A stretch of 64,000 nucleotides of DNA from Vicinamibacteria bacterium (GCA_050246895.1 JBFWVE010000003.1:391240-455239); one strand, 5' to 3'. Positions 1 to 21,616 are shown, counted from the first letter of the stretch. Notes: a model not told the origin generated them from the sequence alone. A program made the numbers and translations.

Positions 1-1959
1 CACGACGCCGGCATCCTGCGCGACCTCGTGGTCATCTTCTCCGCGGCTCTCGCGGTCGTGCTGGTGCTCAGCCGGCTGCGCCTGCCCACGATCGCAGGCT
101 TCATCGTCGCGGGGGCCCTGCTCGGCCCCGGCGGGCTGCGCGCCGTCCGCGACGTCGACCAGGTCGAGCGCCTGGCCGAGATCGGCGTGGCGCTGCTGCT
201 CTTCACGATCGGCCTCGAGTTCTCGCTGGACGAGCTGCGCCGCCTCGGCCGCGTGCTCTCGGTGGGTGGAGGGCTGCAGGTCGGTCTGACGACAGCCCTG
301 GTCGCGGCGCTCGCCGTCCTGATCGGGACGCCTGCCGAGAAGGGCGTCTTCTTCGGGTTCCTGATCGCGCTGTCGAGCACGGCCATCGTGCTGAAGGGCC
401 TCGCCGAGCGCGGCGAGATCGACGCCCCCCACGGAAAGCTGATCGTGGGCGTGCTGCTGTTCCAGGACCTCTGCGTCGTGCCGATGATGCTGCTGGCTCC
501 GGCCCTCGCCGGGCAGGGCGGCGGCGCCTGGGCGCTGCTGCGCCCGATGCTCACCGCGGCCGGCGTCGTGGCCGGGGCGCTCGCCCTCGCCCGAGTGGTG
601 GTGCCTCGCGCGCTGCACCTCGTCGCCTCCACGCGCCGGCGCGACCTGTTCGTGATCGCCGTCGCGCTCGTCGGCGCCGGCATCGCCTGGCTCACCTCCC
701 TCGTCGGCCTGTCGCTGGCGCTCGGCGCCTTCCTGGCGGGCGTCGTGCTCGCGGGCTCCGACTACGGCCACCAGGCCCTGGCCGATACGCGCTCGCTGCG
801 CGACATCTTCACCAGCCTCTTCTTCGTCTCGGTGGGCATGCTGCTCGATCCCTTCGTGATCGTGACCGAGGGCGGGGCGGTGCTCGGCCTGGTGACGGTG
901 GTGCTGTTCGGCAAGGCGCTGGTGGCGACGCTCGCCGGCCTCGCGATGCGCTTCCCCTTGCGCGTGGCGATCCTGGCCGGCCTCGGTCTCGCCCAGATCG
1001 GGGAGTTCTCCTTCGTGCTGGCCGGCCTCGGCCGCCAGCTCGGCCTGCTCGACACCCGCGAGCTGCGGATCTTCTTCGCCGCCAGCGTCGTCACGATGCT
1101 GGTGACTCCGCTCGCTCTGCGCTTCGGCCCCGGCGTCGCCGCCGGCGCTGCACGGTTGCGGGCGCTGGAGCGCCTGCTCGGCCGCCCGCACCTCGACGAG
1201 GCTCCCCCCGCCGAGCGGCCCTCGGGGCACGTGATCGTGCTCGGATACGGAGTGGGCGGCGAGATGCTGGCCGAGGTGCTGGCCGAGGCCGGGGAGCCGT
1301 TCCTGGTGCTCGATCTCAACGTCGAGCGGGTGCGCGACGCCCGTCGCCGGCGGCTCCCCGTGTACTACGGGGACGTCACCAGCCGCGACCTGCTCGAGCA
1401 CGCGGGCGTCGCCGCAGCGCGGCAGGTCGTGGCGCTGCTGAACGATCCCGACGCCACGCTGCGCGCGGTGCGCGCCGCCCGCGCGGCATCCGCGGGAGCC
1501 GTGATCACCGCCCGCGCCCGCTACGTCGCCGACGTGCCGGCGCTGCTGCGGGCCGGCGCGGACGAAGCCGTGGCCCAGGAGTTCGAGGCGTCGCTCACGA
1601 TCATCGAGCGCGTCACCCGCGAGGCGAGGGCCCCGCGCCCCGCACGCGCCGAGCTGCGCGCGCGGCTGGGGCTCGAGCCGCCGCCGGCGGCCGGCGCGCG
1701 CCTGCCGCAGGGCCTCGCCGTCCAGAGCGTGTCGGTGGCGGCGGACGCCTGGGTGGCCGGCCGCACACTGGCCGAGTCGAGCCTGCGCCGGCGCACCGGC
1801 GCCACGCTCGTCGCGGTGAGCCGGGGCGAGGCGACGGCGACCCACCCGTCGCCGGCGGACCGGCTCGAGGCGGGCGACGTGCTCTGCCTCGTCGGCGACG
1901 ACCGCCAGATCGCGGCCGCTCGCGAGCTGCTCGCCTCGGGGCCGGCGGCGGAGGCCTAG
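1..1959 (+). CDS. Kef-type monovalent cation:proton antiporter (CPA2) with C-terminal TrkA-N/TrkA-C (RCK) domains. It is 5' partial: the reading frame is open from base 1 (HDAGILRDLVV... precedes the first listed Met).
   Basis: The N-terminal TM region IAGFIVAGALLGPGGL is typical of KefB/KefC. It has a GYGxxG Rossmann motif (VIVLGYGVGGEMLA) and a C-terminal TrkA-C-like region. The frame is open to the window edge. Confidence 0.85.
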   Translation, partial: HDAGILRDLVVIFSAALAVVLVLSRLRLPTIAGFIVAGALLGPGGLRAVRDVDQVERLAEIGVALLLFTIGLEFSLDELRRLGRVLSVGGGLQVGLTTALVAALAVLIGTPAEKGVFFGFLIALSSTAIVLKGLAERGEIDAPHGKLIVGVLLFQDLCVVPMMLLAPALAGQGGGAWALLRPMLTAAGVVAGALALARVVVPRALHLVASTRRRDLFVIAVALVGAGIAWLTSLVGLSLALGAFLAGVVLAGSDYGHQALADTRSLRDIFTSLFFVSVGMLLDPFVIVTEGGAVLGLVTVVLFGKALVATLAGLAMRFPLRVAILAGLGLAQIGEFSFVLAGLGRQLGLLDTRELRIFFAASVVTMLVTPLALRFGPGVAAGAARLRALERLLGRPHLDEAPPAERPSGHVIVLGYGVGGEMLAEVLAEAGEPFLVLDLNVERVRDARRRRLPVYYGDVTSRDLLEHAGVAAARQVVALLNDPDATLRAVRAARAASAGAVITARARYVADVPALLRAGADEAVAQEFEASLTIIERVTREARAPRPARAELRARLGLEPPPAAGARLPQGLAVQSVSVAADAWVAGRTLAESSLRRRTGATLVAVSRGEATATHPSPADRLEAGDVLCLVGDDRQIAAARELLASGPAAEA

Positions 1960-1971
1960 ACCCGGCTCCGG

Positions 1972-3447
1972 TTACGCCCGAGCCGCCGCGCTCGCTTCCA
2001 CCGCGGCCTGGGCGGCGGTCATGTGCGCTTCGAGCGCGCGTCGCGCCTGGCGCTTCGCGAGCCACGGCTTCAGGTAGAACATCCAGGCCGAGCCCAGGCT
2101 GATCAGCAGCGTGCCGAGGTAGACGAGCGGCAGTCCGGGCGCGCGCACGACGGAGAAGATCGACAGCATCGGCTCGCCCTCGACGAACGAGGACTGGAAG
2201 AAGACGTAGCCGCGGTAGTGCAGCGGGCGGTTCATCGCGATCAGGTGCTCGCTCACGCCGCGCTCGGGGTCCTCGACGCGCACACGGCTTTCGTAGCTCG
2301 CCGGCCGGTTCGAGCCCGGGTACTTCTCGGAGCGGAACTCCAGCAGCGTGACGCGGAACGGCACGGTCAGCTCGCTGGGGCGGAACGCGAGCGTCGCCTC
2401 GCCGCCGGCGTACGCCACGTGAAGCAGGTCGTTCCAGGCGAGCCAGAACGAGTCGCTGCGCCGGCCCTGCCCCTCGAGGTGCGCGCGGATCGCCGGGTTC
2501 TGCTGCTCCTCCTTGACCGGCGCCGGGGCCGGCTCGACGCTGCGCCGCCTGGTCGCGCGGGGCAGGAAGCGGTCGACGCTGATCGAGATCCCCATCCAGG
2601 GCGTGGGGATCGGCTGGTCGAGCACGACGCTGCCCTCGGAGGCCGAGCCGCCGGCGCTGGAGATCGCCCACGCGAGGCCGCCGTTCGGCCCCGCCACGAA
2701 GCGCATCTCGTTCCGCCCGGCCGCCTGCGGCCTCAGCAGCTCCTGCGCGTGCTCGGGGGTCTCGGCGCGCGCCAGCGTGAACGCCACGGGCCCGAAGTCC
2801 ATGCGGGCCGCATCGGGCGACTCGAGCGAGAGCCAGGCGTCCTGATGCAGCGTCGGATGGGCCAGCTGGAGGTGGAGCGTCGGCCAGCCGCCCTGCGCGG
2901 CCTCGACCAGCTCCTCGCCCACGACGGCGTGCGCAGCGACCTCCTCGATCACCAGCGTGTCGCCGGCCTCGCCGATCGGCAGCCGCTGCGGCCCGGCGCC
3001 TGCGGCCGGCGAGTCGAAGCTCGCGTGGACCGCGCCCGGCAGCGCCACGTGCAGCGAGCGGTCGCGCAGGCTGACGCGATCCGTGGTCTCGCGCTCGTAG
3101 ATGCCCATCGAGCCGTCGATCCCGCGATGCAGCGAGATCAGCGAGCCCAGCAGCAGGATCAGGATGCCGGCGTGAGCCAGCAGGAAGCCCGCGTTGTGCC
3201 GGCTCCAAGGAAAGCGCAGCAGCATCGAGGCGGTGATGTTGACGGCCAGCGCGAGCAGCAGCGCCGTGAACCAGGGCGCCTGGTAGAAGAGACGCTGGGC
3301 CGAGGCGGTGCCGTAGGAGGCTTCGTGGAAGGTCGCCCAGGCGCAGGCGACGCCCAGGGCGGTCATGATGACGACCGCCAGCCGCAGCGACCCGAGGCGC
3401 CGCAGCCACAGGTCGGCGAAGGCGTCGGCCCGTGTCTCGATGCTCAT
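1972..3447 (-). CDS. resB: Cytochrome c biogenesis protein ResB/Ccs1 (System II). I take the start as the internal Met (MSIETRADAFADLWLRRLGS...), not the upstream extension of the 533-aa ORF.
   Basis: ResB-like N-terminus with a TM helix, a large periplasmic domain, and C-terminal TM helices (LPLVYLGTLLISLGSAWMFY). Length is about 490 aa. Confidence 0.75.
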   Translation of the reverse strand: MSIETRADAFADLWLRRLGSLRLAVVIMTALGVACAWATFHEASYGTASAQRLFYQAPWFTALLLALAVNITASMLLRFPWSRHNAGFLLAHAGILILLLGSLISLHRGIDGSMGIYERETTDRVSLRDRSLHVALPGAVHASFDSPAAGAGPQRLPIGEAGDTLVIEEVAAHAVVGEELVEAAQGGWPTLHLQLAHPTLHQDAWLSLESPDAARMDFGPVAFTLARAETPEHAQELLRPQAAGRNEMRFVAGPNGGLAWAISSAGGSASEGSVVLDQPIPTPWMGISISVDRFLPRATRRRSVEPAPAPVKEEQQNPAIRAHLEGQGRRSDSFWLAWNDLLHVAYAGGEATLAFRPSELTVPFRVTLLEFRSEKYPGSNRPASYESRVRVEDPERGVSEHLIAMNRPLHYRGYVFFQSSFVEGEPMLSIFSVVRAPGLPLVYLGTLLISLGSAWMFYLKPWLAKRQARRALEAHMTAAQAAVEASAAARA

Positions 3448-3580
3448 CACCCGGCCCTCCCCGCGGCCCGCGACCTCGTCGGACAGGTCGATCCGCTCGG
3501 CTGCTTCGAGGAGCAAGGGACGTTCCAGGCCCAATGGCCCATAGAGGGGGCTAGGCGGGGGCTTGGCGCGCAAAGGACGA

Positions 3581-3634: not shown

Positions 3635-5017
3635 CTAGCTCTCCTTCAGCGCCGCGATCAGCTCGAGCAGCCCCTTCTTGGCGTCCGCGAAGAGCATCAG
3701 CGTGTTGGGCAGCGCGAAGAGCGGGTTCGGGATGCCCGCGAAGCCGGGGCTCAGGCTGCGCTTCATCACGATCACGGTCCGCGCCTTGTCGACGTCGAGG
3801 ATCGGCATGCCGGCGATCGGGCAGTTGGGGTCCGTGCGCGCGAGCGGGTTCACCACGTCGTTCGCGCCGATCACGATCGCGACGTCGGTCTCGGGGAAGG
3901 ACGGATTCGCCTCGTCCATCTCCTTGACCTTGTCGTAGGGGATGTTGGCCTCGGCGAGCAGCACGTTCATGTGCCCGGGCATGCGGCCCGCGACCGGGTG
4001 GATCGCGTACTCGACGACGCAGCCCCGGCTCTCGATCAGGTTCGCGAGATCTCGCACCGCGTGCTGCGCCTGCGAGACGGCCAGGCCGTAGCCGGGCACG
4101 ACCACCACCCGGCGCGCGGAGTCGAACAGCATCGCCAGCTCTTCGGGCGAGGCCCCCTTCACCTTGCCGCCGTAGATCTTGTCCTCGGAGAGCTTCTCGC
4201 TTCCCGCCATCACGCCGAACAGCACGTTGGTCAGCGAGCGGTTCATCGCCACGCACATGATCTGCGTCAGGATCAGGCCCGAGGCGCCGACCAGCGAGCC
4301 CGCGATGATCAGCATGTTGTTGTTGAGCACGAAGCCCGTGGCCGCCGCGGCCAGCCCCGAGTAGGAGTTCAGCAGGCAGATCACGACCGGCATGTCGGCC
4401 CCGCCGATCGGCAGCACGCTGAGGACGCCGAGGATCGAGGCGGGCACGATCAGCGCCCAGTACCAGCCGGTCGCCTCCGGGTCGAGCCCGATCGGCACGC
4501 CGAGCCCGATCGCCGAGAGCAGCAGCACGCCGTTCAGCGCCTGCTGCCCGGGATAGTGCCGGGGCCGCAGCCACTTCCACTCCTCGAGCTTGCCGTAGGC
4601 GACCAGGCTGCCGAAGAAGGTGACGGCGCCGATGATGCCGCCGGCGATCGTGGCCACCACGAGCTGGCCCCGGGGGGCCTCGCTGACGACCCCGGCCTCG
4701 AGCAGCGCGGCGCCGGAGACCAGCACGGAAGCGCCGCCGCCGAAGCCGTTCAGCAGGCCCACCATCTGCGGCATCGCGGTCATCGGCACGCGGATCGCGA
4801 GCGCCGCGCCGATGCCGCCGCCGACCACGAGCCCGGCCAGGATCGCCTCGAAGCTGACGATGTGGCGGTCGAACAGCGTGATCACGACGGCGAGCAGCAT
4901 GCCGACCGCGCCGATCAGGTTGCCGCGCACGGCGCTGCGCGGGTGCGCCAGGCCCTTGAAGGCCAGCACGAAACAGACCGCCGCGACCAGGTAGACGAGG
5001 TTCTCGAGGCCTTCCAT
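3635..5017 (-). CDS. pntB: NAD(P) transhydrogenase subunit beta
   Basis: Strong similarity across the whole length to PntB (membrane N-terminal half and C-terminal NADP(H)-binding domain ...GYGLAVSQAQH...). It lies downstream of the two PntA genes. Confidence 0.9.
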   Translation of the reverse strand: MEGLENLVYLVAAVCFVLAFKGLAHPRSAVRGNLIGAVGMLLAVVITLFDRHIVSFEAILAGLVVGGGIGAALAIRVPMTAMPQMVGLLNGFGGGASVLVSGAALLEAGVVSEAPRGQLVVATIAGGIIGAVTFFGSLVAYGKLEEWKWLRPRHYPGQQALNGVLLLSAIGLGVPIGLDPEATGWYWALIVPASILGVLSVLPIGGADMPVVICLLNSYSGLAAAATGFVLNNNMLIIAGSLVGASGLILTQIMCVAMNRSLTNVLFGVMAGSEKLSEDKIYGGKVKGASPEELAMLFDSARRVVVVPGYGLAVSQAQHAVRDLANLIESRGCVVEYAIHPVAGRMPGHMNVLLAEANIPYDKVKEMDEANPSFPETDVAIVIGANDVVNPLARTDPNCPIAGMPILDVDKARTVIVMKRSLSPGFAGIPNPLFALPNTLMLFADAKKGLLELIAALKES

Positions 5018-5324: not shown

Positions 5325-6470
<1,146 letters not shown>

Positions 6471-6486: not shown

Positions 6487-8046
<1,560 letters not shown>

Positions 8047-8127: not shown

Positions 8128-11073
8128 ATGCCGCTGCATCCCTCGTCTCCCGCGCGCCGCCGGCCCGACTTCCACGACCTGATGCGCTTCCGCATCTGGG
8201 ACGTGCTGCTGGTGGCGCGCCCCTACGACTCCTTCATCCTGGAGGAGGCGGGCCAGCTCGCCGAGCGCATGCTGGGCGAGTTCCGCAACCTGGACCTGCA
8301 CTACGCGCCGGGCCTGACGAACGTCGCGACCGGCGCCGAGGCGCTGGCGATCGCCCGCGAGCAGCCGCGCTTCAACCTGGTGGTCTCGGCGCTGCAGCTG
8401 CAGGACATGAACGGCGCCGAGCTCGCGCGGCGCATGCGCGCGGCCGGCCTCGACGTGCCGCTGGTGCTGCTGGCGTTCGACAACCGGGAGCTGAAGGACT
8501 TCGCCGCGCGCCACGACCTGGCGGACGTCGAGCGGCTGTTCCTCTGGCAGGGCGACGACCGCATCCTGCTGGCGATGGTGAAGACCATCGAGGACAGCCG
8601 CAACGTCGACCACGACACCGCCGCCGTCGGCGTGCAGGTGATCCTGCTGGTCGAGGACAACGTCCGCTACTACTCGTCGTTCCTGCCCGAGATCTACGCC
8701 GAGCTGCTGCACCACTCGCAGCGGCTGATCGCCGAGGGCGTCAACCTCTCGCAGAAGATCACGCGCATGCGCGCGCGCCCCAAGATCCTGCTGGCGGGCA
8801 GCTTCGAGGAGGCCTGGGAGCTGTTCACGCGCCACCAGCAGGACGTGCTGGGCGTCGTCTCCGACATCGAGTTCCCGCGCGAGGGCCGCTGGTCGGCGGA
8901 GGCGGGCCTCGAGCTCGCCCGGCTCGTCAAGCAGAGCTGGCCCGACGTGCCGGTGCTGCTGCAGTCCTCGCGGCCCGAGAACGAGGCGCCGGCGCTGGCG
9001 GCCGGGGCCGAGTTCGTGCTGAAGGGCTCGCCCCTGCTGCTGCAGGAGCTGCGCCGCTTCATGCTCGCGAACTTCGGCTTCGGCGACTTCGTGTTCCGCC
9101 GGCCGGATGGCAGCGAGGTGGCGCGCGCGGCGGATCTGCGCAGCCTGGAAGAGCAGCTCGGCAGGGCGCCCGCCGAGAGCATCGCCTATCACGCGGAGCG
9201 AAACCACTTCTCGAAGTGGCTGAAGGCGCGCACGGAATTCGAGCTGGCCGAGGAGCTGCGGCCCAAGCGGCTCTCGGACTACGACGGCATCGAGGCGCTG
9301 CGCGCGAGCCTGATCGGCGCCGTCGACTCCTACCGCCGGGCGCGCGCGCAGACCGTGGTGGCGGACTTCGATCGCGACAGCTTCGACCCCCTCGACTTCC
9401 ACCGCGTGGGCGGCGGCTCGCTGGGCGGCAAGGCGCGCGGGCTCGCCTTCATGCGGCAGCTGCTCGGCGAGTCACGGCTGGCCCAGGAGTTCCCGGGCGT
9501 GCGGCTGGCGGTGCCGCCCGCGGTCGTGCTGGGCACCGACGTCTTCGAGGCCTTCCTCGACGACAACGAGCTGCGCGATTTCGCGATCCAGGAGCGGGAC
9601 GACGCGCGCATCGTCGAGCGCTTCCTGGCCGCGCGGCTGCCGGAGCCGATCGTGGAGGACCTGAGCGCCTACCTGGAGCGCGTCAGCGTGCCGCTGGCGG
9701 TGCGTTCCTCCAGCCTGCTGGAGGACTCGCAGTACCAGCCGTTCACGGGCGTCTACGACACCTTCATGCTGCGCAACTCCGACGCCTTCCTCGGGCGCCG
9801 GCTGAGCGAGCTGCAGCACGCGATCAAGCGCGTCTACGCCTCGACCTTCAGGCGCCGCAGCAAGGACTACATCCGCGCGACGCCCTACCGCCTGGAGGAG
9901 GAGAAGATGGCGGTGATCGTGCAGCGCATCGTGGGCGCGCGGCGGGGCGCGCGCTTCTACCCCGACTTCGCGGGTGTCGCGCGCTCGCACAACTTCTACC
10001 CGACGCCTCCGCTCGAGGCCGGGGACGGCATCGCGGCCGTCGCGATCGGCCTCGGGCGCACGGTGGTCGAGGGCGGCAACTGCCTGCGCTTCAGCCCGCG
10101 CTACCCGCGCCACTCGCTCGGCTCGCGCGAGGCGGCCGACCTGGTGCGCGCCTCGCAGGGGTCGTTCTGGGCGCTGGCCCTCGAGGGGGCGGATGAGGCG
10201 GATCTGGGCGAGACCCGTTACGACCTCTCGGCGGCCGAGCAGGACGGCGTGCTCGCGCCGCTCGCCTCGACCTGGTCGGCCGAGAACGACGTGCTGACGG
10301 ACGGGATCGGGCGCAGCGGAGTGCGGGTGGTCACCTTCTCCGGCCTGCTGAAGCACGAGGGCTTCCCGCTGGCGCCGATCCTGCGCCGCCTGCTGGAGGT
10401 CGCCGAGTGGGGGCTCGGCGCACCGGTCGAGATCGAGTTCGCCGTCGACCTCTCGGCGGCCGCCGGTGAGGCCGAGTTCGGCTTCCTGCAGCTGCGCCCT
10501 CTGGCGCTCTCGCGGGAGGTCGAGGCGCTCGAGATCGGCGAGGTCGATCCCGCTCGCGTGCTGTGCCGCAGCTCGCACGTGCTCGGCCACGGCCGCATCG
10601 ACGACGTGCGCGACGTGGTGGTGGTCGACCATGCGAGCTTCGAGCGGATCCACAGCCGGCAGACCGCGCTCGAGCTGGCCCAGCTGAACGCGGAGCTGCT
10701 CGCCGAGGGCGCGCCCTACCTGCTCGTGGGCGTCGGCCGCTGGGGCTCGGCCGATCCCTGGCTCGGCATCCCGGTCGGCTGGGATCAGATCAACGGCGCG
10801 CGCGTGATCGTGGAGGCGGGCTTCCGCGACTTCAAGGTCACGCCCTCGCAGGGCACGCACTTCTTCCAGAACCTGACGTCGTTCAACGTCGGCTACTTCA
10901 CCGTCAATCCCGACGCCGGCGACGGCAGTGTCGATTGGGACTGGCTGCGCGCCCAGCCCGCGCTGCGGCAGACCGAGCGCGTGCGCCGCATCCGGCTCGG
11001 GGCGCCGCTGGTCGTGCAGATGAACGGCCGCAAGGGCGAGGGCGTGATCCTCAAGCCGCCCCCCCACCCCTGA
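8128..11073 (+). CDS. Multidomain protein: two N-terminal receiver-like (CheY-like) domains followed by a PPDK_N-type PEP-utilising/ATP-grasp nucleotide-binding domain and a conserved C-terminal domain (RWGSADPWLGIP...PSQGTHFFQNL).
   Basis: Receiver-like stretch ILLVEDNVRYYSSF. PPDK_N-like motifs GGSLGGKARGLAFMRQL, LAVRSSSLLED, KMAVIVQRIV. The C-terminal domain is shared with the two downstream paralogs. Confidence 0.75.
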   Translation: MPLHPSSPARRRPDFHDLMRFRIWDVLLVARPYDSFILEEAGQLAERMLGEFRNLDLHYAPGLTNVATGAEALAIAREQPRFNLVVSALQLQDMNGAELARRMRAAGLDVPLVLLAFDNRELKDFAARHDLADVERLFLWQGDDRILLAMVKTIEDSRNVDHDTAAVGVQVILLVEDNVRYYSSFLPEIYAELLHHSQRLIAEGVNLSQKITRMRARPKILLAGSFEEAWELFTRHQQDVLGVVSDIEFPREGRWSAEAGLELARLVKQSWPDVPVLLQSSRPENEAPALAAGAEFVLKGSPLLLQELRRFMLANFGFGDFVFRRPDGSEVARAADLRSLEEQLGRAPAESIAYHAERNHFSKWLKARTEFELAEELRPKRLSDYDGIEALRASLIGAVDSYRRARAQTVVADFDRDSFDPLDFHRVGGGSLGGKARGLAFMRQLLGESRLAQEFPGVRLAVPPAVVLGTDVFEAFLDDNELRDFAIQERDDARIVERFLAARLPEPIVEDLSAYLERVSVPLAVRSSSLLEDSQYQPFTGVYDTFMLRNSDAFLGRRLSELQHAIKRVYASTFRRRSKDYIRATPYRLEEEKMAVIVQRIVGARRGARFYPDFAGVARSHNFYPTPPLEAGDGIAAVAIGLGRTVVEGGNCLRFSPRYPRHSLGSREAADLVRASQGSFWALALEGADEADLGETRYDLSAAEQDGVLAPLASTWSAENDVLTDGIGRSGVRVVTFSGLLKHEGFPLAPILRRLLEVAEWGLGAPVEIEFAVDLSAAAGEAEFGFLQLRPLALSREVEALEIGEVDPARVLCRSSHVLGHGRIDDVRDVVVVDHASFERIHSRQTALELAQLNAELLAEGAPYLLVGVGRWGSADPWLGIPVGWDQINGARVIVEAGFRDFKVTPSQGTHFFQNLTSFNVGYFTVNPDAGDGSVDWDWLRAQPALRQTERVRRIRLGAPLVVQMNGRKGEGVILKPPPHP

Positions 11074-14000
11074 CACCCCTCCCCCCTCCGCCGCCGAGCG
11101 GCAGCTCGCGCGCGGCGTCGGTGACGGCGTGGATCTTCGCGGCGTGCCCGCTCTGGGCCTCGACCTCGGCGTCGTCCACGAAGCGCACGTCGAGCAGCTC
11201 CGCCACGCGCTGGCCCGTGCGCAGGAAGTTGGCCTCCGCCAGCGCCTGGCTCCAGCCGTACAGCCAAGCGTCGAGGGCCGCGCGCTGCTCGGGGCTGCCC
11301 GAGAAGTGCACCAGCAGGTCGAGGTCGCTCGCGGGCCGCGCGCTGCCGCCGAGCGCGCTGCCGTAGACGTAGACCGCGCGCACGCCGAAGCGCGGGGCGT
11401 CCAGCGAGGCGGCCAGCCGCTCGGCCATGCCGAGTCGCCAGCGCGAGTGGTCGCCGGCCGGCAGCGCCGGAGCGGAGAAGCCGGACACCGCTTCGCCCGA
11501 GGCGTCCGCGGAGACCAGGTAGCCGAGCGCCTCGTCCTGCTCCGCGTTCATGGCTACCCGCAGCAGCTGGCCCTCGGTCGCCCGCGGGATCTCGATCACG
11601 CGCACGACGGGGGCGAGCGCCGCGTGTTCGGGCAGCAGCTCGGCGAGCAGGTTGGGAGCGCCCCGGAAGAACTCCTCGCGGAAGGCGACGCCAGGGTCGT
11701 CGGGATACAGCGGCAGGTAGCGGATCTGCGACTCGACGAGGTCCTGGAAGAAGTGGGTGCCGAAAGAGAGATCAGGCACGTAGTGGCCTCGCTTGCGCGC
11801 GACCTCCACCAATAGCGCGGCGTTCGAGATGTCCGCGTAGGTCACGCCGACGCCGAGCCGGACGTCGCCGCGGCTGCCCCAGCGCCCGGGGCCCAGCAGC
11901 GCGAAACGCCGCTTCGGCAACAGCGCGTTCAGCCGGCCGACCGCGCGGCCGACGCTGCGCAGGTCCTGCAGCGAGGCAATGCCCGCGTAGCCGTCGGGAT
12001 CCACGTAGACGACGTGGCTGAGGTCGGGCAGCCGGCCGTTCGACACGTGCCGGTGCGCCGAGAACAGCACGCGCTCGGCCGGGAGGCCGCGCGGGATCGG
12101 GGCGGGCGCCGCATCGGCCGAGCGGCTCTGCGGCCGGCATTGCACCAGGTAGAGGTCGCGCCCGTCGTGCGCGAACTCGAGATCCACCGGCGTGGCGAGC
12201 GACTCGCGCAGCGCGTCGAGCAGCGCGCGCATGCCAGCCACGAAGGGGCTGCGCGAGACGAGCCCCTCGAAGTCGAAGACGAGCTCCGGGCCCTTGCCGT
12301 CGAGGTCGAGCCAGCCGGCGGGGCGGATGCGCTCGCTCTCGAACACGGAGACGAGCTCCGCGAGCAGCGGGTACGCGGTGCCCACCTCGCGCAGCAGCGC
12401 GGCCACCGGGAGCGTCTCGAAGCCGCCGCCCTCGAGATCGATCACGTCCACCATTCGCGGTGCATAGCGGCGAATGTCCTCGGCCGAGACGTTGACGCGC
12501 AGCCCCGGCTGGCCCGGTGCTACCAGCATCGGGTAGTCGTCCGCCAGCCGGTCGACGGCGCGCGTGCCGAGGCCCGGCACCAGGCGCAGCAGCCCGTCCT
12601 CCCGCCGGATGCGCGGTGACCAGCGCAGCTCGTTGTGGCTGAAGGCGACGCCCGAGAAAGCCGGCAGGAAGTAGCGGCCGACGCGGGTGCCGACCACCTC
12701 CTGGATCATCACGGCCATCTCCTCGTGGTGCTCGAGGAGCCCCCGCTCGCTGCGGTACTGGATGGGGTCGGGGCTGAACGTCGAGGCGTACACCTCGGCG
12801 ATCGCGTCGAGCAGCGCCGCGAGGCGCTCGCGCTTGTCGCCCCGGTTGGCCAGGAACAGGCTCTTGTACTTGCCCGAGAAGGCGGAGCCCGCCCGGTCCT
12901 CGAGCAGGCTCGAGCTGCGCACGATCAGCGGCCGGTCGCCGAGGTCGTCGAGGTCGTCGAGCGCGCGCGCGACGCCGTGCTCGATCTCGGGCGGGAAGCG
13001 CGAGTTCTTGAACAACTGCAGGACGTGCGGGTACTCCTGTCGGATCTGATCGACCTGCCGGTATTTCCAGGTGTAGACCTCGTCGAGATCGTTGTAGGCC
13101 ACGAAGTGCAGGATGCCGTCCGACGGTAGGTACCAGGTGCGCGGGAAGCGCACCTCCGCGTGCACGCCGGCGAGCTCGGGCGAGCGGCGCAGCACCTGGC
13201 GCGCCAGGAAGAGGCCGCTCGCCTTGCCGCCCAGGCGGCCGTGGCTGCGCGGCAGCTGGATCGTGCGCGCGATCAGCTCGAAGAAGTCCTCGACCTCGGC
13301 GAAGCGGCGCACCGCGGCGATCGAGTCCTGCTGCTCGGTCAGCAGGCGGCGCGCGAGCGCGCTCACGAGCCCGACCTGCGTCGCCTGCGGCAGCTCGCGC
13401 GAGTGGACCCCGGTGCGCTGGAAGCGCTCGACGGAGTTGCCGATCTCGACCAGCGAGGTGTAGGGCGTCTCGAGCGCCTGCACGAGGAACTCGACCCGGT
13501 CCTCGCGGATCCAGGCCTGCACCATCGAGAGGATCTCGGCCTCCGGCAGGTGGGTCGCGGCGATGTGGAAGGTGCGCTCGAGACTGGCCTCGTCCTGTGG
13601 CACCGCTCGCGCCAGCGGGCGGTTCTCGTCCTCGGGAGGGCTGCTGGCAGGCGGCTTCGGCGCCAGGCTCGCGAGCAGCTCGCGCGCCTCGGGGGCGCCC
13701 ATCCACGCCAGGTGGTTGAGCAGCCGCCGCGCGATGCGCCGGTAGAGGTTGCGGTCGGTGTTGCGGAGCAGGCCGAGGATCACCTCGACGTTCTCGCCGC
13801 GCCGCGCCGGCGCTTGCGGCGGCGCCAGCGGGCGCGCTTCGCGCCGCGCCAAGTGGTCCGACAGCCGCGCCGCGATGGTGTCGATCAGCCGGCGCTCCTC
13901 TTTCAGGAAGGGCCCCTCGTCGGCCGGCGGGAACCCGTGGACGTAGGTCGCCGTCACCACGCCGGCACGCCGGCCGGCCAGCACGATCGGCGCCGAAAGC

Positions 14001-14257
14001 TCCCACGGCGTCTCGACGAACTCGGGCGAGGTCCAGCTGCGCCCGCCCAGCGTGATGCGAGCCTGGCATGCGCCCGGGTGCTGCCAGCCCGGGGGAATGG
14101 CCTCCAGCACGCCCTGCAGCACCTCCTCGAGGGGGCGCTCCGGGTCGCGCAAGTGCTCCTCGACGCGATAGAGGCAGCTCAGCTCCTTGGCGCGCTCCTG
14201 CAGCGCCCACAGCACGCGGTCGAGCGGCTGGCCGCTGTCGTCCTGCGCGCTCGTCAT
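11051..14257 (-). CDS. Multidomain protein: N-terminal sensor-like (GAF/PAS-like) domain, PPDK_N-type ATP-grasp domain, conserved C-terminal domain (GPGRWGSRGDVRLGVGV...LSFGTHFFQDL), and a C-terminal pol-beta-superfamily minimal nucleotidyltransferase. The start is the ATG of MTSAQDD..., which overlaps the stop of the upstream gene as ATGA.
   Basis: PPDK_N motifs RLGGKASGLFLARQVL, LIVRSSSLLED, EMAVMIQEVVG. Nucleotidyltransferase motif VYVYGSALGGSARPASDLDLLVHF (GS-x9-DxD). The 5' 1.4 kb of the listed 1537-aa ORF overlaps the next gene in another frame and is RG-rich, so I treat it as spurious. Confidence 0.75.
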   Translation of the reverse strand: MTSAQDDSGQPLDRVLWALQERAKELSCLYRVEEHLRDPERPLEEVLQGVLEAIPPGWQHPGACQARITLGGRSWTSPEFVETPWELSAPIVLAGRRAGVVTATYVHGFPPADEGPFLKEERRLIDTIAARLSDHLARREARPLAPPQAPARRGENVEVILGLLRNTDRNLYRRIARRLLNHLAWMGAPEARELLASLAPKPPASSPPEDENRPLARAVPQDEASLERTFHIAATHLPEAEILSMVQAWIREDRVEFLVQALETPYTSLVEIGNSVERFQRTGVHSRELPQATQVGLVSALARRLLTEQQDSIAAVRRFAEVEDFFELIARTIQLPRSHGRLGGKASGLFLARQVLRRSPELAGVHAEVRFPRTWYLPSDGILHFVAYNDLDEVYTWKYRQVDQIRQEYPHVLQLFKNSRFPPEIEHGVARALDDLDDLGDRPLIVRSSSLLEDRAGSAFSGKYKSLFLANRGDKRERLAALLDAIAEVYASTFSPDPIQYRSERGLLEHHEEMAVMIQEVVGTRVGRYFLPAFSGVAFSHNELRWSPRIRREDGLLRLVPGLGTRAVDRLADDYPMLVAPGQPGLRVNVSAEDIRRYAPRMVDVIDLEGGGFETLPVAALLREVGTAYPLLAELVSVFESERIRPAGWLDLDGKGPELVFDFEGLVSRSPFVAGMRALLDALRESLATPVDLEFAHDGRDLYLVQCRPQSRSADAAPAPIPRGLPAERVLFSAHRHVSNGRLPDLSHVVYVDPDGYAGIASLQDLRSVGRAVGRLNALLPKRRFALLGPGRWGSRGDVRLGVGVTYADISNAALLVEVARKRGHYVPDLSFGTHFFQDLVESQIRYLPLYPDDPGVAFREEFFRGAPNLLAELLPEHAALAPVVRVIEIPRATEGQLLRVAMNAEQDEALGYLVSADASGEAVSGFSAPALPAGDHSRWRLGMAERLAASLDAPRFGVRAVYVYGSALGGSARPASDLDLLVHFSGSPEQRAALDAWLYGWSQALAEANFLRTGQRVAELLDVRFVDDAEVEAQSGHAAKIHAVTDAARELPLGGGGGRGVRGGGAA

Positions 14258-15981
14258 GGGGCCCCCCTCAGGATCAGGCCGCGACCGCTGCGGGCGTCGA
14301 CGCGCACCTCGAAGGCCCGATCGGCGCGCCCGTGGACCACGTGCTCGGTCTCGGCCTGTCGCGGGAGCGCCTCGAGCCAATCCCAGTCGACGCGCGAGCC
14401 GCCGCGCCGCGTGACGCTCAGATAGGCGACGCCGAAGCTCAGCAGGTTGTGGAAGAAGTGCGAGCCCTGGCTCGGCTCCACCTCCAGATCCGGCAGCCCG
14501 GCCTCGACGATCACGCGCGCCGAGGCGACGTCGCCCCAGGCGACCGGGATGCCCAGCCAGGGGTCGGCCGAGCCCCAGCGTCCGAACCCGATCAGCACGC
14601 AGGCGCGCCCAGCGGCCAGCAGGCCCGCGTTCAGCCGCTCGATCTCGCTCGCGACCTCGCGCATCTTCGCACGCTCGAAGCCCTGGCGCTTCACGAACAG
14701 CACGTCGCGCAGGTCCGGGTAGCGGCCGTGGCCGACGGCGCCGGTCGCCGCCACCACCGCGCGCGGGTCGCCGAGGTCCTGCTCGCCGACCGGCTCGGGT
14801 TCGGCGCCGGTTCCCATCGGGCGCACCTGCAGGAAGCCGAGCCGCGCGCGCTCGGGCTCGATGGTGAGCGCGAGCTCGATCTCGACCGGCGCGCCCGCCC
14901 GAGCCTCGAACAGGCGCAGCAGGCCGTCCACGGCCTCGTGCAGCGGGAAGTCGGGGAACTCGCGCAGGGGCGCGAAATCGACGACCGGGCTGCCGCCGCG
15001 GCCGAGGCCGGGCGTCAGCCGGCCGGAGGCCGGGTCGTAGCTCGAGGCCACGGCCCCGAGCGTACCGTCGTCGGCCGCCAGCGTCAGGGGGCACTCGAGC
15101 AGGTACTCGGTCTCGGCCATCGGGTCCCAGTCCACCGGCTCGCCCATGTTGACCGCCCAGAAGCTGCGCTGCGCCGCGTCGAGGCGCTCGGCCGGCGTCG
15201 CGTAGGGCGGCACGGCGCGCGGATAGCGCGGGCAGTAGGTCCAGCAGCGGCCGCCGTCGACGATCGTCTTGCCGAGACCGAGCGCAAGGCTCGCCACCCC
15301 GTCCTCGGGTCGCGCGGGGCCGATCGGGTAGAAGCCGAGCGAGCGCGCGACCAGCGAGACGTCGGGATAGAAACGCGAGCCGTGCCGGCGGCCGACGACC
15401 TCCTGGACTACCACCGCCATCTTCTCGTCCGGCACGCCGCTGCCGAGCGCCGCCCGATACGCGCGGGCGGCTCGGAAGAACGTGGACGCGTAGACGAACT
15501 TGACCGCCTCGATCAACTTGCGAAAGCGCGTCTCGGCGCTCGACTGGTCGTTCGGCGTCAGCTTCGTCTCGTAGACGCCGGCGAAAGGGTGCGCCAGCGC
15601 GTCCTCGAGCCGGCTCGAGGAGCGGACCGCGAGAGGACGCGTGACGCCCGCCACCAGGGCCCACAGATCGCCCACGACCTCGGGCGGCAGCTCGGCCCGC
15701 TGGAACAGGAGCGCGATGCGGTGGTCCGGCAGCTCCGCCAGCTCAGCCTCGAGCAGGCCGCTGCGCTGCACGAACGAGTCGAAGACGTCGGTGCCGATCA
15801 CGGTGAGCGTCGGCACGTCGACCCCGAGCCGGCCGAGGCGCCTCGCCTCGCCGAAGCCCGCCAGCGCGCCGCGCGCCGCCTGCAGGCCTGCCGCCTTCCC
15901 GCCCACCTCCCCGGTCCCGATCGCGCTCAGAGGCTCGCCGGACCCGAAGAAGCGGCGCGGGAAGCGCGGCAGCGCGCTCAC
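14254..15981 (-). CDS. Stand-alone PPDK_N-type ATP-grasp protein with the same conserved C-terminal domain (paralog of the two preceding proteins). The likely GTG start overlaps the gdh stop as GTGA.
   Basis: Motifs GGKAAGLQAARGAL, LAVRSSSRLED, KMAVVVQEVVG, IGFGRWGSADPWLGIPVAWGDV, PSQGSHFFHNL. There is no ATG in frame; a GTG sits at 15981 immediately after the upstream stop. The rest of the listed 913-aa ORF overlaps gdh in another frame and is spurious. Confidence 0.7.
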   Translation of the reverse strand: MSALPRFPRRFFGSGEPLSAIGTGEVGGKAAGLQAARGALAGFGEARRLGRLGVDVPTLTVIGTDVFDSFVQRSGLLEAELAELPDHRIALLFQRAELPPEVVGDLWALVAGVTRPLAVRSSSRLEDALAHPFAGVYETKLTPNDQSSAETRFRKLIEAVKFVYASTFFRAARAYRAALGSGVPDEKMAVVVQEVVGRRHGSRFYPDVSLVARSLGFYPIGPARPEDGVASLALGLGKTIVDGGRCWTYCPRYPRAVPPYATPAERLDAAQRSFWAVNMGEPVDWDPMAETEYLLECPLTLAADDGTLGAVASSYDPASGRLTPGLGRGGSPVVDFAPLREFPDFPLHEAVDGLLRLFEARAGAPVEIELALTIEPERARLGFLQVRPMGTGAEPEPVGEQDLGDPRAVVAATGAVGHGRYPDLRDVLFVKRQGFERAKMREVASEIERLNAGLLAAGRACVLIGFGRWGSADPWLGIPVAWGDVASARVIVEAGLPDLEVEPSQGSHFFHNLLSFGVAYLSVTRRGGSRVDWDWLEALPRQAETEHVVHGRADRAFEVRVDARSGRGLILRGAP

Positions 15982-17258
15982 ACCCAGCCGCGCTCCCGGC
16001 AGGCCTGCGCCACCCGGCTGATCGCGATCACGTAGGCAGCGTCGCGCATCGGCAGCTTGCGCCGATCCGCCAGCTCGTGGACGGCGTGGAACGCCGAGGT
16101 CATCTTCACGTCGAGCTTGGCCAGGACCTCGTCCTTCTCCCAATAGTAGTTCGTGTTGCTCTGGACCTGCTCGAAGTAGCTGCAGGTCACACCACCGGCG
16201 TTGGCCAGGAAGTCGGGGATCACGTAGATCCCGCGCTGGCGCAGCACGGCGTCGCCGTCCGTGGTGGTCGGGCCGTTGGCGCCCTCGGCGATGATCTTCA
16301 CGCTGCCCGCGATGCGGCGGGCGCTCTCGCCGTCGATCTGGTTCTCGAGCGCCGCGGGGACCAGGATCTCGACCGGCTCCGCCAGCCAGGCGTCGCCGGG
16401 CAGCACCTCGTAGCCCAGCTCGCGCGCCTTCTCCTTGTCGATGCCGCCGAAGCGGTCGGCGATCCCGACCAGCGCGTCGGCGTCGACGCCGTCCTGCTTG
16501 CGGAACGAGTAGGCGCGCTGGTCCTGCTGGTCCCAGCAGGAGACGCAGGAGACCTTGCCGCCGATCCGCTGGAACAACCGGATCGCGTACTGCGCGACGT
16601 TGCCGAAGCCCTGCACGCTGGCCCGCGCGCCCTCGGGCTTGAGGTCCAGCTCGCGAAGCGCCTCGCGCAGGGCGAAGACGACGCCGTAGCCCGTGGCCTC
16701 GGTGCGCCCGAGCGAGCCGCCCATGCCGACCGGCTTGCCGGTGATGAAGCCCGGGAAGTGCCCGCCGCGGATGTGCTCGTACTCGTCGAGCATCCACAGC
16801 ATGTGCTGGGCGTTCGTCATCACGTCGGGCGCTGGCACGTCCGCCACCGGGCCCACGTTGCGGGCGATCTGGCGAACCCAGCCGCGGCACAGCTGCTCCT
16901 GCTCGCGCGGGCTCAGGTTGTGCGGGTCGCAGATGATGCCGCCCTTGGCGCCTCCGAGCGGAATGTCCACCACGGCGCACTTCCAGGTCATCCACATCGC
17001 CAGCGCGCGCACGGTGTCGAGCGTCTCCTGCGGATGGAAGCGGATGCCCCCCTTGCTCGGTCCGCGCGCATCGGAGTGCTGCACCCGGAAGCCGCGAAAC
17101 ACGTGCACGTTGCCGCCGTCCATGCGCACCGGTATCGCGAACGAGTACTCACGCAGGGGCCAGCGCAGCAACTCTCGCGACGCGGGGTCGAGCCCGAGCA
17201 GCTCCGCGACGTGGTCGAACTGGGCCTGGGCGATCTCGAACGAGTTGTAGGACTTCAT
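15978..17258 (-). CDS. gdh: Glutamate dehydrogenase, Bacillus/archaeal ~425-aa type (Glu/Leu/Phe/Val dehydrogenase family). The start is taken at MKSYNSFEIAQAQF.
   Basis: Motifs PLGGAKGGIICDPHNLS, GVTCSYFEQVQ and GFGNVAQYA. The upstream 37-aa extension in the ORF track is Arg-rich and unlikely. Confidence 0.85.
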   Translation of the reverse strand: MKSYNSFEIAQAQFDHVAELLGLDPASRELLRWPLREYSFAIPVRMDGGNVHVFRGFRVQHSDARGPSKGGIRFHPQETLDTVRALAMWMTWKCAVVDIPLGGAKGGIICDPHNLSPREQEQLCRGWVRQIARNVGPVADVPAPDVMTNAQHMLWMLDEYEHIRGGHFPGFITGKPVGMGGSLGRTEATGYGVVFALREALRELDLKPEGARASVQGFGNVAQYAIRLFQRIGGKVSCVSCWDQQDQRAYSFRKQDGVDADALVGIADRFGGIDKEKARELGYEVLPGDAWLAEPVEILVPAALENQIDGESARRIAGSVKIIAEGANGPTTTDGDAVLRQRGIYVIPDFLANAGGVTCSYFEQVQSNTNYYWEKDEVLAKLDVKMTSAFHAVHELADRRKLPMRDAAYVIAISRVAQACRERGWV

Positions 17259-19739: not shown

Positions 19740-20573
19740 TCAGCGCCCGCCGAAGCGGGGCGGCCGCTTCTCGAAGAAGGCGGCGATGCCCTCGGCGCAG
19801 TCCGGCGTGTCGGCGATGCGGGCGAGCTCCTCCAGCTCGCGGTCGAGGTGGACGTCGAGCCGGTCGCTGGCCGAGGCGGCGTGCAGCAGCGCCTTGGTGA
19901 CGGCGTAGGAGCGCGTCGGTCCGGCGGCGAGCGTCGCGGCCACGCGCCGCACCTCGGCCTCGAAGGCGTGCTCGGGGATCACCTCGCTGACGAGACCCAT
20001 CCGCCAGGCGCGCGCGGCGTCGAGCCGCGGGTTCAGGAACGCGAGATCGAAGGCGCGGCGCAGGCCGACGAGCCGCGGCAGGAAGAAGGTCGAGCTTTCG
20101 GCGCCGGTCAGCGCCGTCTTGGGATAGGCCCACTCGAAGCTCGCGCGCGAGGACGCGAGCACCAGGTCGCAGGCCATCGCCAGGCCGAAGCCGCCCGCGG
20201 CCGCGACGCCGTCGACCGCCGCCAGCACCGGCTTCGGCGCGCGCTTCAGCTCGGAGATCGTGGAGTGCAGGTACTCCAGGATCTGCTTGAAGCGCTCCCC
20301 GTAGCCGGCGGGGATCTCGCGCGAAGCGGGCTGCAGGTAGCCGAGGTCGGCGCTCTCGCCGCCCGAGCGGATGTACTTGAGGTCGGCGCCGCTGCAGAAG
20401 ACGCCGTTCGTGCCCTGCAGCACCACGCAGCGCACGCTCTCGTCGCGGCAGAGCGCGAGTCCGGCCTGGCGCAGGTCCTGGGCGGTGGCGACGTCGAGCG
20501 AGTTGAAGCGCTCGGGCCGGGCGATCGTCAGCCAGCCGACGCCGTCCTCGCGCGAGACGCGGATGTGGCGCAT
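19740..20573 (-). CDS. Enoyl-CoA hydratase/isomerase (crotonase-fold) protein embedded in the hyp operon. Its ATG overlaps the hypE stop.
   Basis: Crotonase oxyanion-hole motifs VVLQGTNGVFCSGADL and AAVDGVAAAGGFGLAMACD. It is 277 aa and starts at MRHIRVSREDG. The 5' 1.5 kb of the listed 767-aa ORF is a spurious out-of-frame overlap of hypE and hypD. Confidence 0.8.
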   Translation of the reverse strand: MRHIRVSREDGVGWLTIARPERFNSLDVATAQDLRQAGLALCRDESVRCVVLQGTNGVFCSGADLKYIRSGGESADLGYLQPASREIPAGYGERFKQILEYLHSTISELKRAPKPVLAAVDGVAAAGGFGLAMACDLVLASSRASFEWAYPKTALTGAESSTFFLPRLVGLRRAFDLAFLNPRLDAARAWRMGLVSEVIPEHAFEAEVRRVAATLAAGPTRSYAVTKALLHAASASDRLDVHLDRELEELARIADTPDCAEGIAAFFEKRPPRFGGR

Positions 20574-21616
20574 CAGCAGATCCTCGGCAGAGGCTCGCCT
20601 TCGATCTCGACCAGCAGCCGCCGCCCGAAGCCGGTGTCGAGCACGACCTGCCCCACCCGCTCGGCCACGCACTCGCCGACGATCGCGGCGTGCTGCCCCT
20701 GCGGCTGGCCGCGCAGCGCCGCCAGCACGGCGCCGGCCACGTGCGGCCGCACGCCGAGGAGCGCCTTGCCCTCGTTGGCGATCACGAGCGGATCGATGCC
20801 GAGCAACTCGGACGCCGCCCGCACCGCGGGCGTCACGGGCACGCTCGGCTCGTCGAGCACGATGCCGACGCCGCTCTTCTCGGCCATCTCGTGGAGCGCG
20901 CTCGCGAGCCCGCCGCGCGTGGGGTCCTTCAGCGTCACGACGCCGTCGCCGCCGGCGCGCAGCGCGGCCCTCACCAGCGCGTTGATCGGCGCCACGTCGG
21001 AGCGCAGGTCGCCGGAGAGCTCGAGCTTGTGGCGCGCCGCCATCACCGCGCAGCCGTGGTCGCCGACGCTGCCGCTGACGATCAGGCGGTCGCCGGGCCG
21101 CAGGCCGCTGTCGCGCACGACGCGGGCGGCCATGCCGATGCCCGTGGTGTTGAGCATCACGCCGTCGAGCTGCCCCCGGCCCATCACCTTGGTGTCGCCG
21201 GTGACGATCGTGGTGCCCGCCTCGCGACAGGCCTCGACCATCGAGGCGTGGATCCGTTCGAGGTCGGCGCGCGAGAAGCCCTCCTCCACCACCACGGCGC
21301 AGGTCAGCGCCAGCGGCTCGGTGGCGCCCATCATCGCGAGGTCGTTGACGGTGCCCGAGACCGCCAGCCGCCCGATGTCGCCGCCCGCGAAGAAGGCCGG
21401 CGAGACCACGTGCGAGTCCGTGGTGATCACCAGGAAGCCGTCGCCCAGCGGCAGCGCGGCGCCGTCGTCCATCGCGTCGAGACCGTAGAGTCCGGCGGGC
21501 CCCTCGGGGAAGCCGCCCGTCAGGACCTCGCGCACGAGCTGGCGCATGGCGCGCCCGCCCGCGCCGTGCTTCAGCAGGACCTTGTCCTCGAGCAGCGCCA
21601 GCCGCAGCGTCGTCAT
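20573..21616 (-). CDS. hypE: Hydrogenase maturation factor HypE (carbamoyl dehydratase). The start is taken at MTTLRLALLEDK.
   Basis: AIR-synthase-like fold and the conserved C-terminal ...PRIC. Confidence 0.9.
   Translation of the reverse strand: MTTLRLALLEDKVLLKHGAGGRAMRQLVREVLTGGFPEGPAGLYGLDAMDDGAALPLGDGFLVITTDSHVVSPAFFAGGDIGRLAVSGTVNDLAMMGATEPLALTCAVVVEEGFSRADLERIHASMVEACREAGTTIVTGDTKVMGRGQLDGVMLNTTGIGMAARVVRDSGLRPGDRLIVSGSVGDHGCAVMAARHKLELSGDLRSDVAPINALVRAALRAGGDGVVTLKDPTRGGLASALHEMAEKSGVGIVLDEPSVPVTPAVRAASELLGIDPLVIANEGKALLGVRPHVAGAVLAALRGQPQGQHAAIVGECVAERVGQVVLDTGFGRRLLVEIEGEPLPRIC

Follow-up and report, generated by a model that had tools for sequence, protein, structure and literature searches.

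The DNA analysed here is a stretch of 64,000 nucleotides from a Vicinamibacteria bacterium (GCA_050246895.1 JBFWVE010000003.1:391240-455239; hereafter the window), with a G+C content of about 72%. It contains two convergent operons that stand face to face, each led by a gene for glutamate dehydrogenase (GDH). The gene of particular interest, the target (11051..14257, minus strand), is an open reading frame (ORF) of 1068 codons with an ATG start, and its product of 1068 amino acids (aa) comprises five modules according to an AlphaFold2 model and alignments: a GAF-like domain, an all-helical domain, a PPDK_N ATP-grasp domain, a further conserved domain that is unknown to Pfam (the C-domain) and a minimal nucleotidyltransferase. 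The target is the last of three genes on its strand. The operon begins with GDH1 (15978..17258, minus strand), a Thermococcus-type glutamate dehydrogenase recognised by Pfam ELFV_dehydrog_N and ELFV_dehydrog and matching PDB entries 8i83 and 1euz (E 1e-116), and continues with a short paralogue of the target (14254..15981, minus strand; 575 aa) that consists of PPDK_N (Pfam E 1e-29) and the C-domain only. The short paralogue is 30% identical to the core of the target and carries GRWGS and GSHFF motifs. Each of the two junctions overlaps by 4 nt, the stop of GDH1 with the GTG start of the short paralogue as GTGA, and the stop of the short paralogue with the ATG of the target as ATGA. Because of these overlaps, the three genes look translationally coupled.

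A first-pass annotation of this DNA had read the target as a fusion of a sensor-like N-terminal domain, a PPDK_N ATP-grasp domain and a pol-beta-type nucleotidyltransferase, while allowing that it might be an assembly or frameshift artefact joining separate genes. All three domain calls hold when judged by Pfam, the structural model and homologues. In favour of an artefact there is nothing beyond the unusual length and mixture of domains. From 11051 to about 14250 a single frame keeps a third-codon-position GC of 0.90-1.00, and the frame changes where the upstream gene begins; the target is therefore a single uninterrupted gene, free of frameshift. In addition, the matches in a protein database include more than 100 proteins between about 1050 and 1070 aa long, at 98% query coverage and 55-94% identity, and the same single ORF is present in loci of at least 80 species, so that the whole architecture is kept in many genomes and the probability of an artefact is negligible. 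The names of the matching proteins, where given, are generic ("PEP/pyruvate-binding domain-containing protein", "nucleotidyltransferase domain-containing protein"). The first pass had overlooked the all-helical domain, the C-domain and its conserved histidine, the natural fusion with the upstream paralogue and the linkage to glutamate dehydrogenase.

The AlphaFold2 model was built on 82 homologues (pLDDT, the predicted local distance difference test, 83; pTM, the predicted template modelling score, 0.69). At the N-terminus, residues 11-141 (13835..14227; all domain coordinates of the target are on the minus strand) form a divergent GAF-like domain, tentatively assigned from the fold of the model, from GAF matches of orthologues and from conserved motifs. 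The modelled fold is alpha/beta, with two helices, four strands and a further helix, in keeping with the earlier impression that the first ~140 aa are sensor-like. Of 51 orthologous N-domains, 25 match Pfam GAF, at best with E 2e-5; the copy in the window reaches only E 0.15 and 13 bits, which is below the cut-off. Foldseek gave a weak match only, to a bacteriophytochrome. The motifs ERAKEL.CLY and GPFLKEE are invariant across the aligned orthologues, and a database search with the N-domain returned fragments of the same family and no other architecture. The all-helical domain that follows (residues 156-335; 13253..13792) is modelled as ten helices with high pLDDT and has no Pfam match and no family assignment.

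The ATP-grasp nucleotide-binding domain occupies residues 341-720 (12098..13237) and matches Pfam PPDK_N (PF01326) at E 4e-54 and 184.5 bits. The best Foldseek matches are rifampin phosphotransferase (5hv3/5hv1, E 3e-13), phosphoenolpyruvate (PEP) synthase (2ols), HpeI (9goj) and PPDK, and the motifs GGK345, VRSSS447-450, D692xE694 and Q706xR708 are invariant in alignments of homologues. No curated NCBIfam family covers the protein. The NCBIfam models for PEP synthase, rifampin phosphotransferase, PigC/RedH, MntA and aminoglycoside nucleotidyltransferase match locally and far under their cut-offs, the dikinase-type scores being at most 50 bits against cut-offs of at least 600 bits. Neither PEP-utilizers_C nor any other substrate domain was matched in the target by Pfam or NCBIfam, or in 50 family members by Pfam. 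Given this lack of a substrate-domain match and the low NCBIfam scores, we do not file the target as a PEP synthase, a PPDK or a rifampin phosphotransferase.

The C-domain (residues 725-916; 11510..12085) is a candidate divergent phospho-histidine carrier. Its motifs in the target are GPGRWGSRGD and SFGTH835FFQDL, the latter with a family pattern of S-x-G-[TS]-H-F-F. Motifs were counted over 151 domain instances in 150 representatives clustered at 50% identity: His835, whose codon in the S-F-G-T-H-F-F motif lies at 11753..11755, is kept in 150 of the 151 instances and the preceding Thr or Ser (position 834) in 148, and GxGRWG[ST] is conserved at about 99%. A profile of the domain finds 2392 representative clusters at E <=1e-3, and 698 at 1e-30, among 1.84 billion representatives. 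It stands directly after PPDK_N in 10 of 10 and in 50 of 50 proteins scanned, all of which lack canonical PEP-utilizers and PEP-utilizers_C domains. The profile gave chance matches only against PDB sequences, Foldseek of the C-domain against the PDB returned nothing at E <=0.001, and an hhalign comparison with the swivel domains of E. coli PpsA and PtsI, combined in a mini-alignment, reached a probability of 0.3; homology to PEP-utilizers is not demonstrated. To our knowledge, every characterised PPDK_N enzyme requires a histidine carrier domain. Since this is so, the C-domain is probably a strongly diverged phospho-histidine carrier with His835 as the putative phospho-acceptor.

After a disordered linker comes a minimal (MNT-type) pol-beta nucleotidyltransferase domain (residues 934-1055; 11093..11458) with G966 S967, D978xD980 and D1023. 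The earlier NTP_transf_2 assignment is backed by profile search, as Pfam PF01909 matches residues 957-991 at a marginal 23.4 bits (gathering cut-off 21) together with a supporting Polbeta match, and by conservation of the catalytic motif: the 82 full-length homologues all have G966, S967 and D978, and at least 90% of them keep D980 and D1023. NTP_transf_2 also matches 10 of 50 diverse family members, with a best E of 2e-8. In Foldseek searches the domain resembles 2rff (probability 1.0), MntA (7bxo_E/6m6u_F, 0.85) and AadA (5luh); with NF047752, the NCBIfam model for MntA, it reaches 25 bits (E 1e-5; cut-off 60). The nucleotidyltransferase is an optional add-on, being absent from some orthologues of 915-932 aa and from a related class of 765-782 aa.

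The fusion had been called unusual, which holds relative to characterised proteins only; in nature the family is large. Scanning one genome per species revealed a relative of the target in at least 547 species genomes from at least 10 phyla, full-length relatives being 45-67% identical. Represented in the best 80 loci are Acidobacteriota (including Thermoanaerobaculia, Holophagales, Terriglobia and Aminicenantes), Eisenbacteria, Krumholzibacteriota, Gemmatimonadota, Planctomycetota, Myxococcota, Calditrichota, Ignavibacteria/Bacteroidota, Zixibacteria, Fermentibacteria and Cloacimonadota. Because relatives are spread over so many species genomes and phyla, the five-module architecture is conserved and old, and neither an artefact nor rare. 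Proteins of 765-782 aa (P0211 and P0238) are 39-48% identical to target residues ~225-915; they retain the second half of the all-helical domain and have neither the GAF-like domain nor the nucleotidyltransferase. In two proteins of about 1630-1650 aa (P0096 and P0079), the short paralogue is fused N-terminally to a target-like protein, a Rosetta-stone fusion of the two neighbours seen in the window. Together with P0183-P0185, these natural fusions of short-paralogue and target type span 1520-1650 aa and carry two ATP-grasp/His cores per chain. No paper on this family was found in the literature searched, which covered PPDK_N together with nucleotidyltransferases, GDH in connection with dikinases or AMPylation, DUF5752, and the output domains of response regulators. 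The individual domain types are already known; the C-domain, the whole architecture, the set of paralogues and the linkage to GDH appear undescribed.

The association of the target with GDH is conserved well beyond the window. To count neighbourhoods, the window proteins were compared by tblastn with 82 related loci, and linkage to GDH1 was counted on the 66 loci whose upstream sequence extends for 3.3 kb or more, with an orthologue threshold of at least 55% identity. A GDH1 orthologue (median 73% identity to the GDH1 of the window) lies upstream of the target in 65/66 loci, and on the same strand in 62. The short paralogue is present in 48 of these 66 loci; the arrangement GDH1, short paralogue, target is found in 47 loci and GDH1, target, without a short paralogue, in 15. 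The 765-782-aa relatives P0211 and P0238 also adjoin an ELFV dehydrogenase gene, even though they have neither the GAF-like domain nor the nucleotidyltransferase. When all ORFs of the loci were clustered, one further recurrent neighbour emerged beyond GDH and the paralogues, a metallophosphoesterase (about 290 aa; 29 bits with Pfam Metallophos) that lies directly downstream of the target in 39/67 loci, mostly convergent (for example, 13173..14036 on the minus strand of locus L001). The four inspected relatives that have no nucleotidyltransferase are not followed by it, a sample too small to establish a link. On one contig with a nucleotidyltransferase-less orthologue (P0108; locus L089, 4950..7004), gene calling gives a 107-aa fragment for the upstream GDH and 459 aa for the short paralogue; these short calls may reflect pseudogenisation or long-read indel errors.

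The second operon of the window repeats the theme on the opposite strand. GDH2 (6631..8046, plus strand, exact start uncertain; Pfam ELFV_dehydrog), which is about 32% identical to GDH1 and matches PDB 5gud and 5ijz (deposited as NADP-specific GDH; E 1e-177), precedes a gene of 981 aa (8128..11073, plus strand) that is convergent to the target and combines two receiver (REC) domains with PPDK_N and the C-domain (Pfam Response_reg and PPDK_N; C-domain motifs). The window thus holds three copies of the ATP-grasp and C-domain core, in the target, the short paralogue and the REC-REC paralogue; the C-domain is common to all three PPDK_N proteins and His835 is invariant in them. In the REC-REC paralogue, the linker before the ATP-grasp domain weakly matches DUF5752 (E 0.002 in the window and 3e-5 in relative P0319). 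By eye, REC1 has no phospho-acceptor Asp (…LVVSALQLQDMNG…), and REC2 keeps it (…VVSDIEFP…). Of the 82 loci, 10 have a REC paralogue close to the target, and in the window and several other loci the two lie tail-to-tail. In 9 of those 10 loci the REC paralogue adjoins a GDH2 orthologue, and the GDH2 orthologues found beside REC-PPDK_N genes elsewhere are 66-82% identical.

The 23-bp overlap (11051-11073) between the target and the REC-REC paralogue, noted in the first pass, is real by ORF coordinates. It is made of the non-conserved C-terminal tails of the two proteins ("…GGGGGRGVRGGGAA" and "…KPPPHP"), and in other loci the convergent genes abut or stand apart. Since related loci do not share the overlap and neither a terminator-like nor a promoter-like site was found in it, antisense interference as a designed feature is unlikely, and we regard the overlap as incidental compaction.

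The target shares features with several known systems and differs from each of them. With the PEP-utilising dikinases (5hv1/5hv3, 2ols, 1dik and 9goj) it has in common the PPDK_N ATP-grasp with GGK, RSSS, DxE and QxRP motifs, followed by a domain with a near-invariant [TS]-His at the start of a helix, comparable to the T-S-H of PPDK. It differs from them in having no PEP-utilizers swivel domain recognisable by sequence or profile, no PEP/pyruvate TIM-barrel and no rifampin-binding domain, and in its additional GAF-like, helical and nucleotidyltransferase modules and its linkage to GDH. With minimal nucleotidyltransferases (MntA 7bxo/6m6u, the Sulfolobus protein 2rff and AadA) it shares the G-S, the DxD, the third Asp and the fold, but its copy is fused to the C-terminus of an enzyme of about 930 aa rather than standing alone. 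MntA, of the type VII toxin-antitoxin system, is a protein adenylyltransferase and shows that MNT domains can AMPylate proteins; unlike MntA, the target has no HEPN partner, and it scores far below the cut-offs for MntA and for aminoglycoside nucleotidyltransferases.

Two regulators of nitrogen metabolism offer analogies. GlnE, the glutamine synthetase adenylyltransferase, and GlnD, the PII uridylyltransferase, are pol-beta-fold nucleotidyltransferases that exert covalent control of nitrogen assimilation in response to glutamine and 2-oxoglutarate. The likeness is functional only, as the presumed modified protein of the target is GDH and not glutamine synthetase or PII, the domain make-up differs, and the target matches neither the GlnE nor the GlnD family in Pfam or NCBIfam. 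Enzyme I-Ntr (PtsP), again by analogy only, unites an N-terminal GAF sensor with an enzyme whose autophosphorylation takes place on a histidine of the swivel domain, and its GAF domain has been reported to respond to glutamine and 2-oxoglutarate. PtsP uses PEP via a TIM-barrel and passes the phosphate to NPr, whereas the target would use ATP via its ATP-grasp domain and has no PEP-binding domain.

Since the target has no PEP/pyruvate or other small-molecule domain and is almost constantly co-encoded with GDH, here with 4-nt overlaps, we propose that it is a metabolite-sensing, PEP-synthase-like phosphotransfer enzyme and AMPylase that covalently regulates the co-encoded GDH, a reading to which we assign a probability of about 40%. 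In such a scheme, the ATP-grasp domain would load His835 with a phosphoryl group from ATP, as happens in PPDK, PEP synthase and rifampin phosphotransferase, and the phosphoryl group would then pass to GDH, or to a GDH-associated site or partner, instead of to a metabolite. The nucleotidyltransferase could add AMP or another nucleoside monophosphate to GDH or to the target enzyme itself as a second layer of control, and the GAF-like domain might gate the modification in response to a sensed metabolite. The short paralogue may serve as an auxiliary phosphotransfer unit, and the downstream metallophosphoesterase is a possible eraser that would reverse the modification. The order of the domains, the conserved residues, the similarities of fold, the Rosetta-stone fusion and the synteny are observed; the formation of phospho-histidine, the identity of GDH as the modified protein, the chemistry of the nucleotidyltransferase and the ligand of the GAF-like domain are inferred. 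The presence of REC domains on the convergent paralogue and of a GAF-like domain on the target is typical of signalling enzymes. Several observations weigh against covalent regulation of GDH: the adjacency to GDH is equally compatible with a metabolic role, no fusion to GDH occurs among 50 diverse family members, the NTP_transf_2 score of the window copy is barely over threshold, and the metallophosphoesterase is mostly encoded on the strand opposite to the target and was not found by tblastn in the 64-kb window.

The main rival is that the core is a metabolic dikinase which phosphorylates a small metabolite tied to the GDH reaction or to amino-acid catabolism and gluconeogenesis, such as a 2-oxo acid, much as PEP synthase does with pyruvate; it would be co-transcribed with GDH as a member of the same pathway, and the GAF-like domain and the nucleotidyltransferase would only tune its activity. 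The characterised PPDK_N enzymes that match the target (PEP synthase, PPDK, rifampin phosphotransferase and HpeI) all act on small molecules or glucans, enzymes of one pathway usually share operons, and both GDH types have a partner of this kind although, with the same substrates, they are only ~32% identical. Against this, Pfam recognises no substrate-binding domain, the short paralogue is ATP-grasp and C-domain alone, REC domains on a paralogue are unusual for a pathway enzyme, and no pathway gene is conserved nearby except the phosphoesterase. We consider a metabolic dikinase rather unlikely. Less probable again, in our opinion, is an unorthodox phosphorelay in which phospho-histidine would be passed to the REC domain of the convergent paralogue or to another response regulator, GDH being merely co-regulated. 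A near-invariant histidine on a putative mobile domain, the tail-to-tail position of a REC-bearing paralogue here and in several loci, and the acceptor Asp of REC2 would all suit a phosphorelay, but only 10 of 82 loci have such a paralogue close to the target, as against 65/66 for GDH, and the REC paralogue has an ATP-grasp/His core and a GDH of its own.

The resemblance of the nucleotidyltransferase to MntA also raises the question of a defence or toxin-antitoxin-type module of the MntA/HepT kind, and PADLOC does report a PDC-S09 match (E 4e-6) beside the NCBIfam MntA match at E 1e-5, which is under its cut-off. Both matches span only the ~35-residue G-S/DxD core, no HEPN-like or other defence gene is a conserved neighbour in the 82 loci, the context across phyla is one of conserved housekeeping genes, and part of the family dispenses with the nucleotidyltransferase. 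We therefore reject a defence role as very improbable.

Returning to the proposed regulation of GDH, its linkage with the target is about as tight as for any operon partner and suggests a new way of controlling GDH. Glutamate dehydrogenase stands at the junction of carbon and nitrogen metabolism, and we know of no dedicated covalent-modification system described for a bacterial GDH. A family that has members in 547 or more species genomes, lies beside GDH in all but one of 66 loci, and combines phosphotransfer, nucleotidyl-transfer and sensor modules is a testable candidate for one, and could prove to be a new regulatory system for the enzyme. Many of its carriers are abundant and poorly studied bacteria of soil and sediment. 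More speculatively, and with somewhat less confidence than in the proposal for the target itself, the PPDK_N and C-domain core may define a putative new class of ATP-driven, dikinase-type protein-modifying enzymes that work through phospho-histidine. Together with the AMPylase and a metallophosphoesterase eraser, it might constitute a dedicated covalent switch for GDH, a counterpart of GlnE and glutamine synthetase, in Acidobacteriota, Gemmatimonadota, Planctomycetota, Myxococcota, the FCB (Fibrobacteres, Chlorobi and Bacteroidetes) group and further phyla, the two GDH types encoded here each having a sensor-equipped paralogue of its own. Independent of any role in GDH control, the family would extend the PEP-synthase/PPDK superfamily by a branch that has a new carrier-type domain and no domain for a small-molecule substrate.

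A few observations on the surroundings deserve mention. Compared with 8i83, the nearest GDH of known structure, the GDH1 clade linked to these genes has two small insertions, at residues ~239-250 (…SCWDQQDQR…) and ~272-285 (…IDKEKARELGY…), and at least 98% of 72 orthologues keep Trp243; the insertion region could be a docking or modification site. Upstream of GDH2 and divergent from it lie genes for NAD(P) transhydrogenase, PntB and the PntA/AlaDH_PNT subunit (3635..5017 and 5325..6470, both minus strand), and a PntA/PntB set is also found a few kb from a pair of GDH and 782-aa PPDK_N genes on an unrelated contig (L086, 12874..14349); this recurrence may point to a theme of NAD(P)H balance, or may be coincidence. 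The outer flanks look like housekeeping genes and encode a Na+/H+ exchanger with TrkA domains (28..1959, plus strand), a ResB-like cytochrome c biogenesis protein (1972..3573, minus strand) and an enoyl-CoA hydratase fusion (19740..22043, minus strand), none of them a widely conserved neighbour: the enoyl-CoA hydratase region alone is met again in related loci, 5 of 83.

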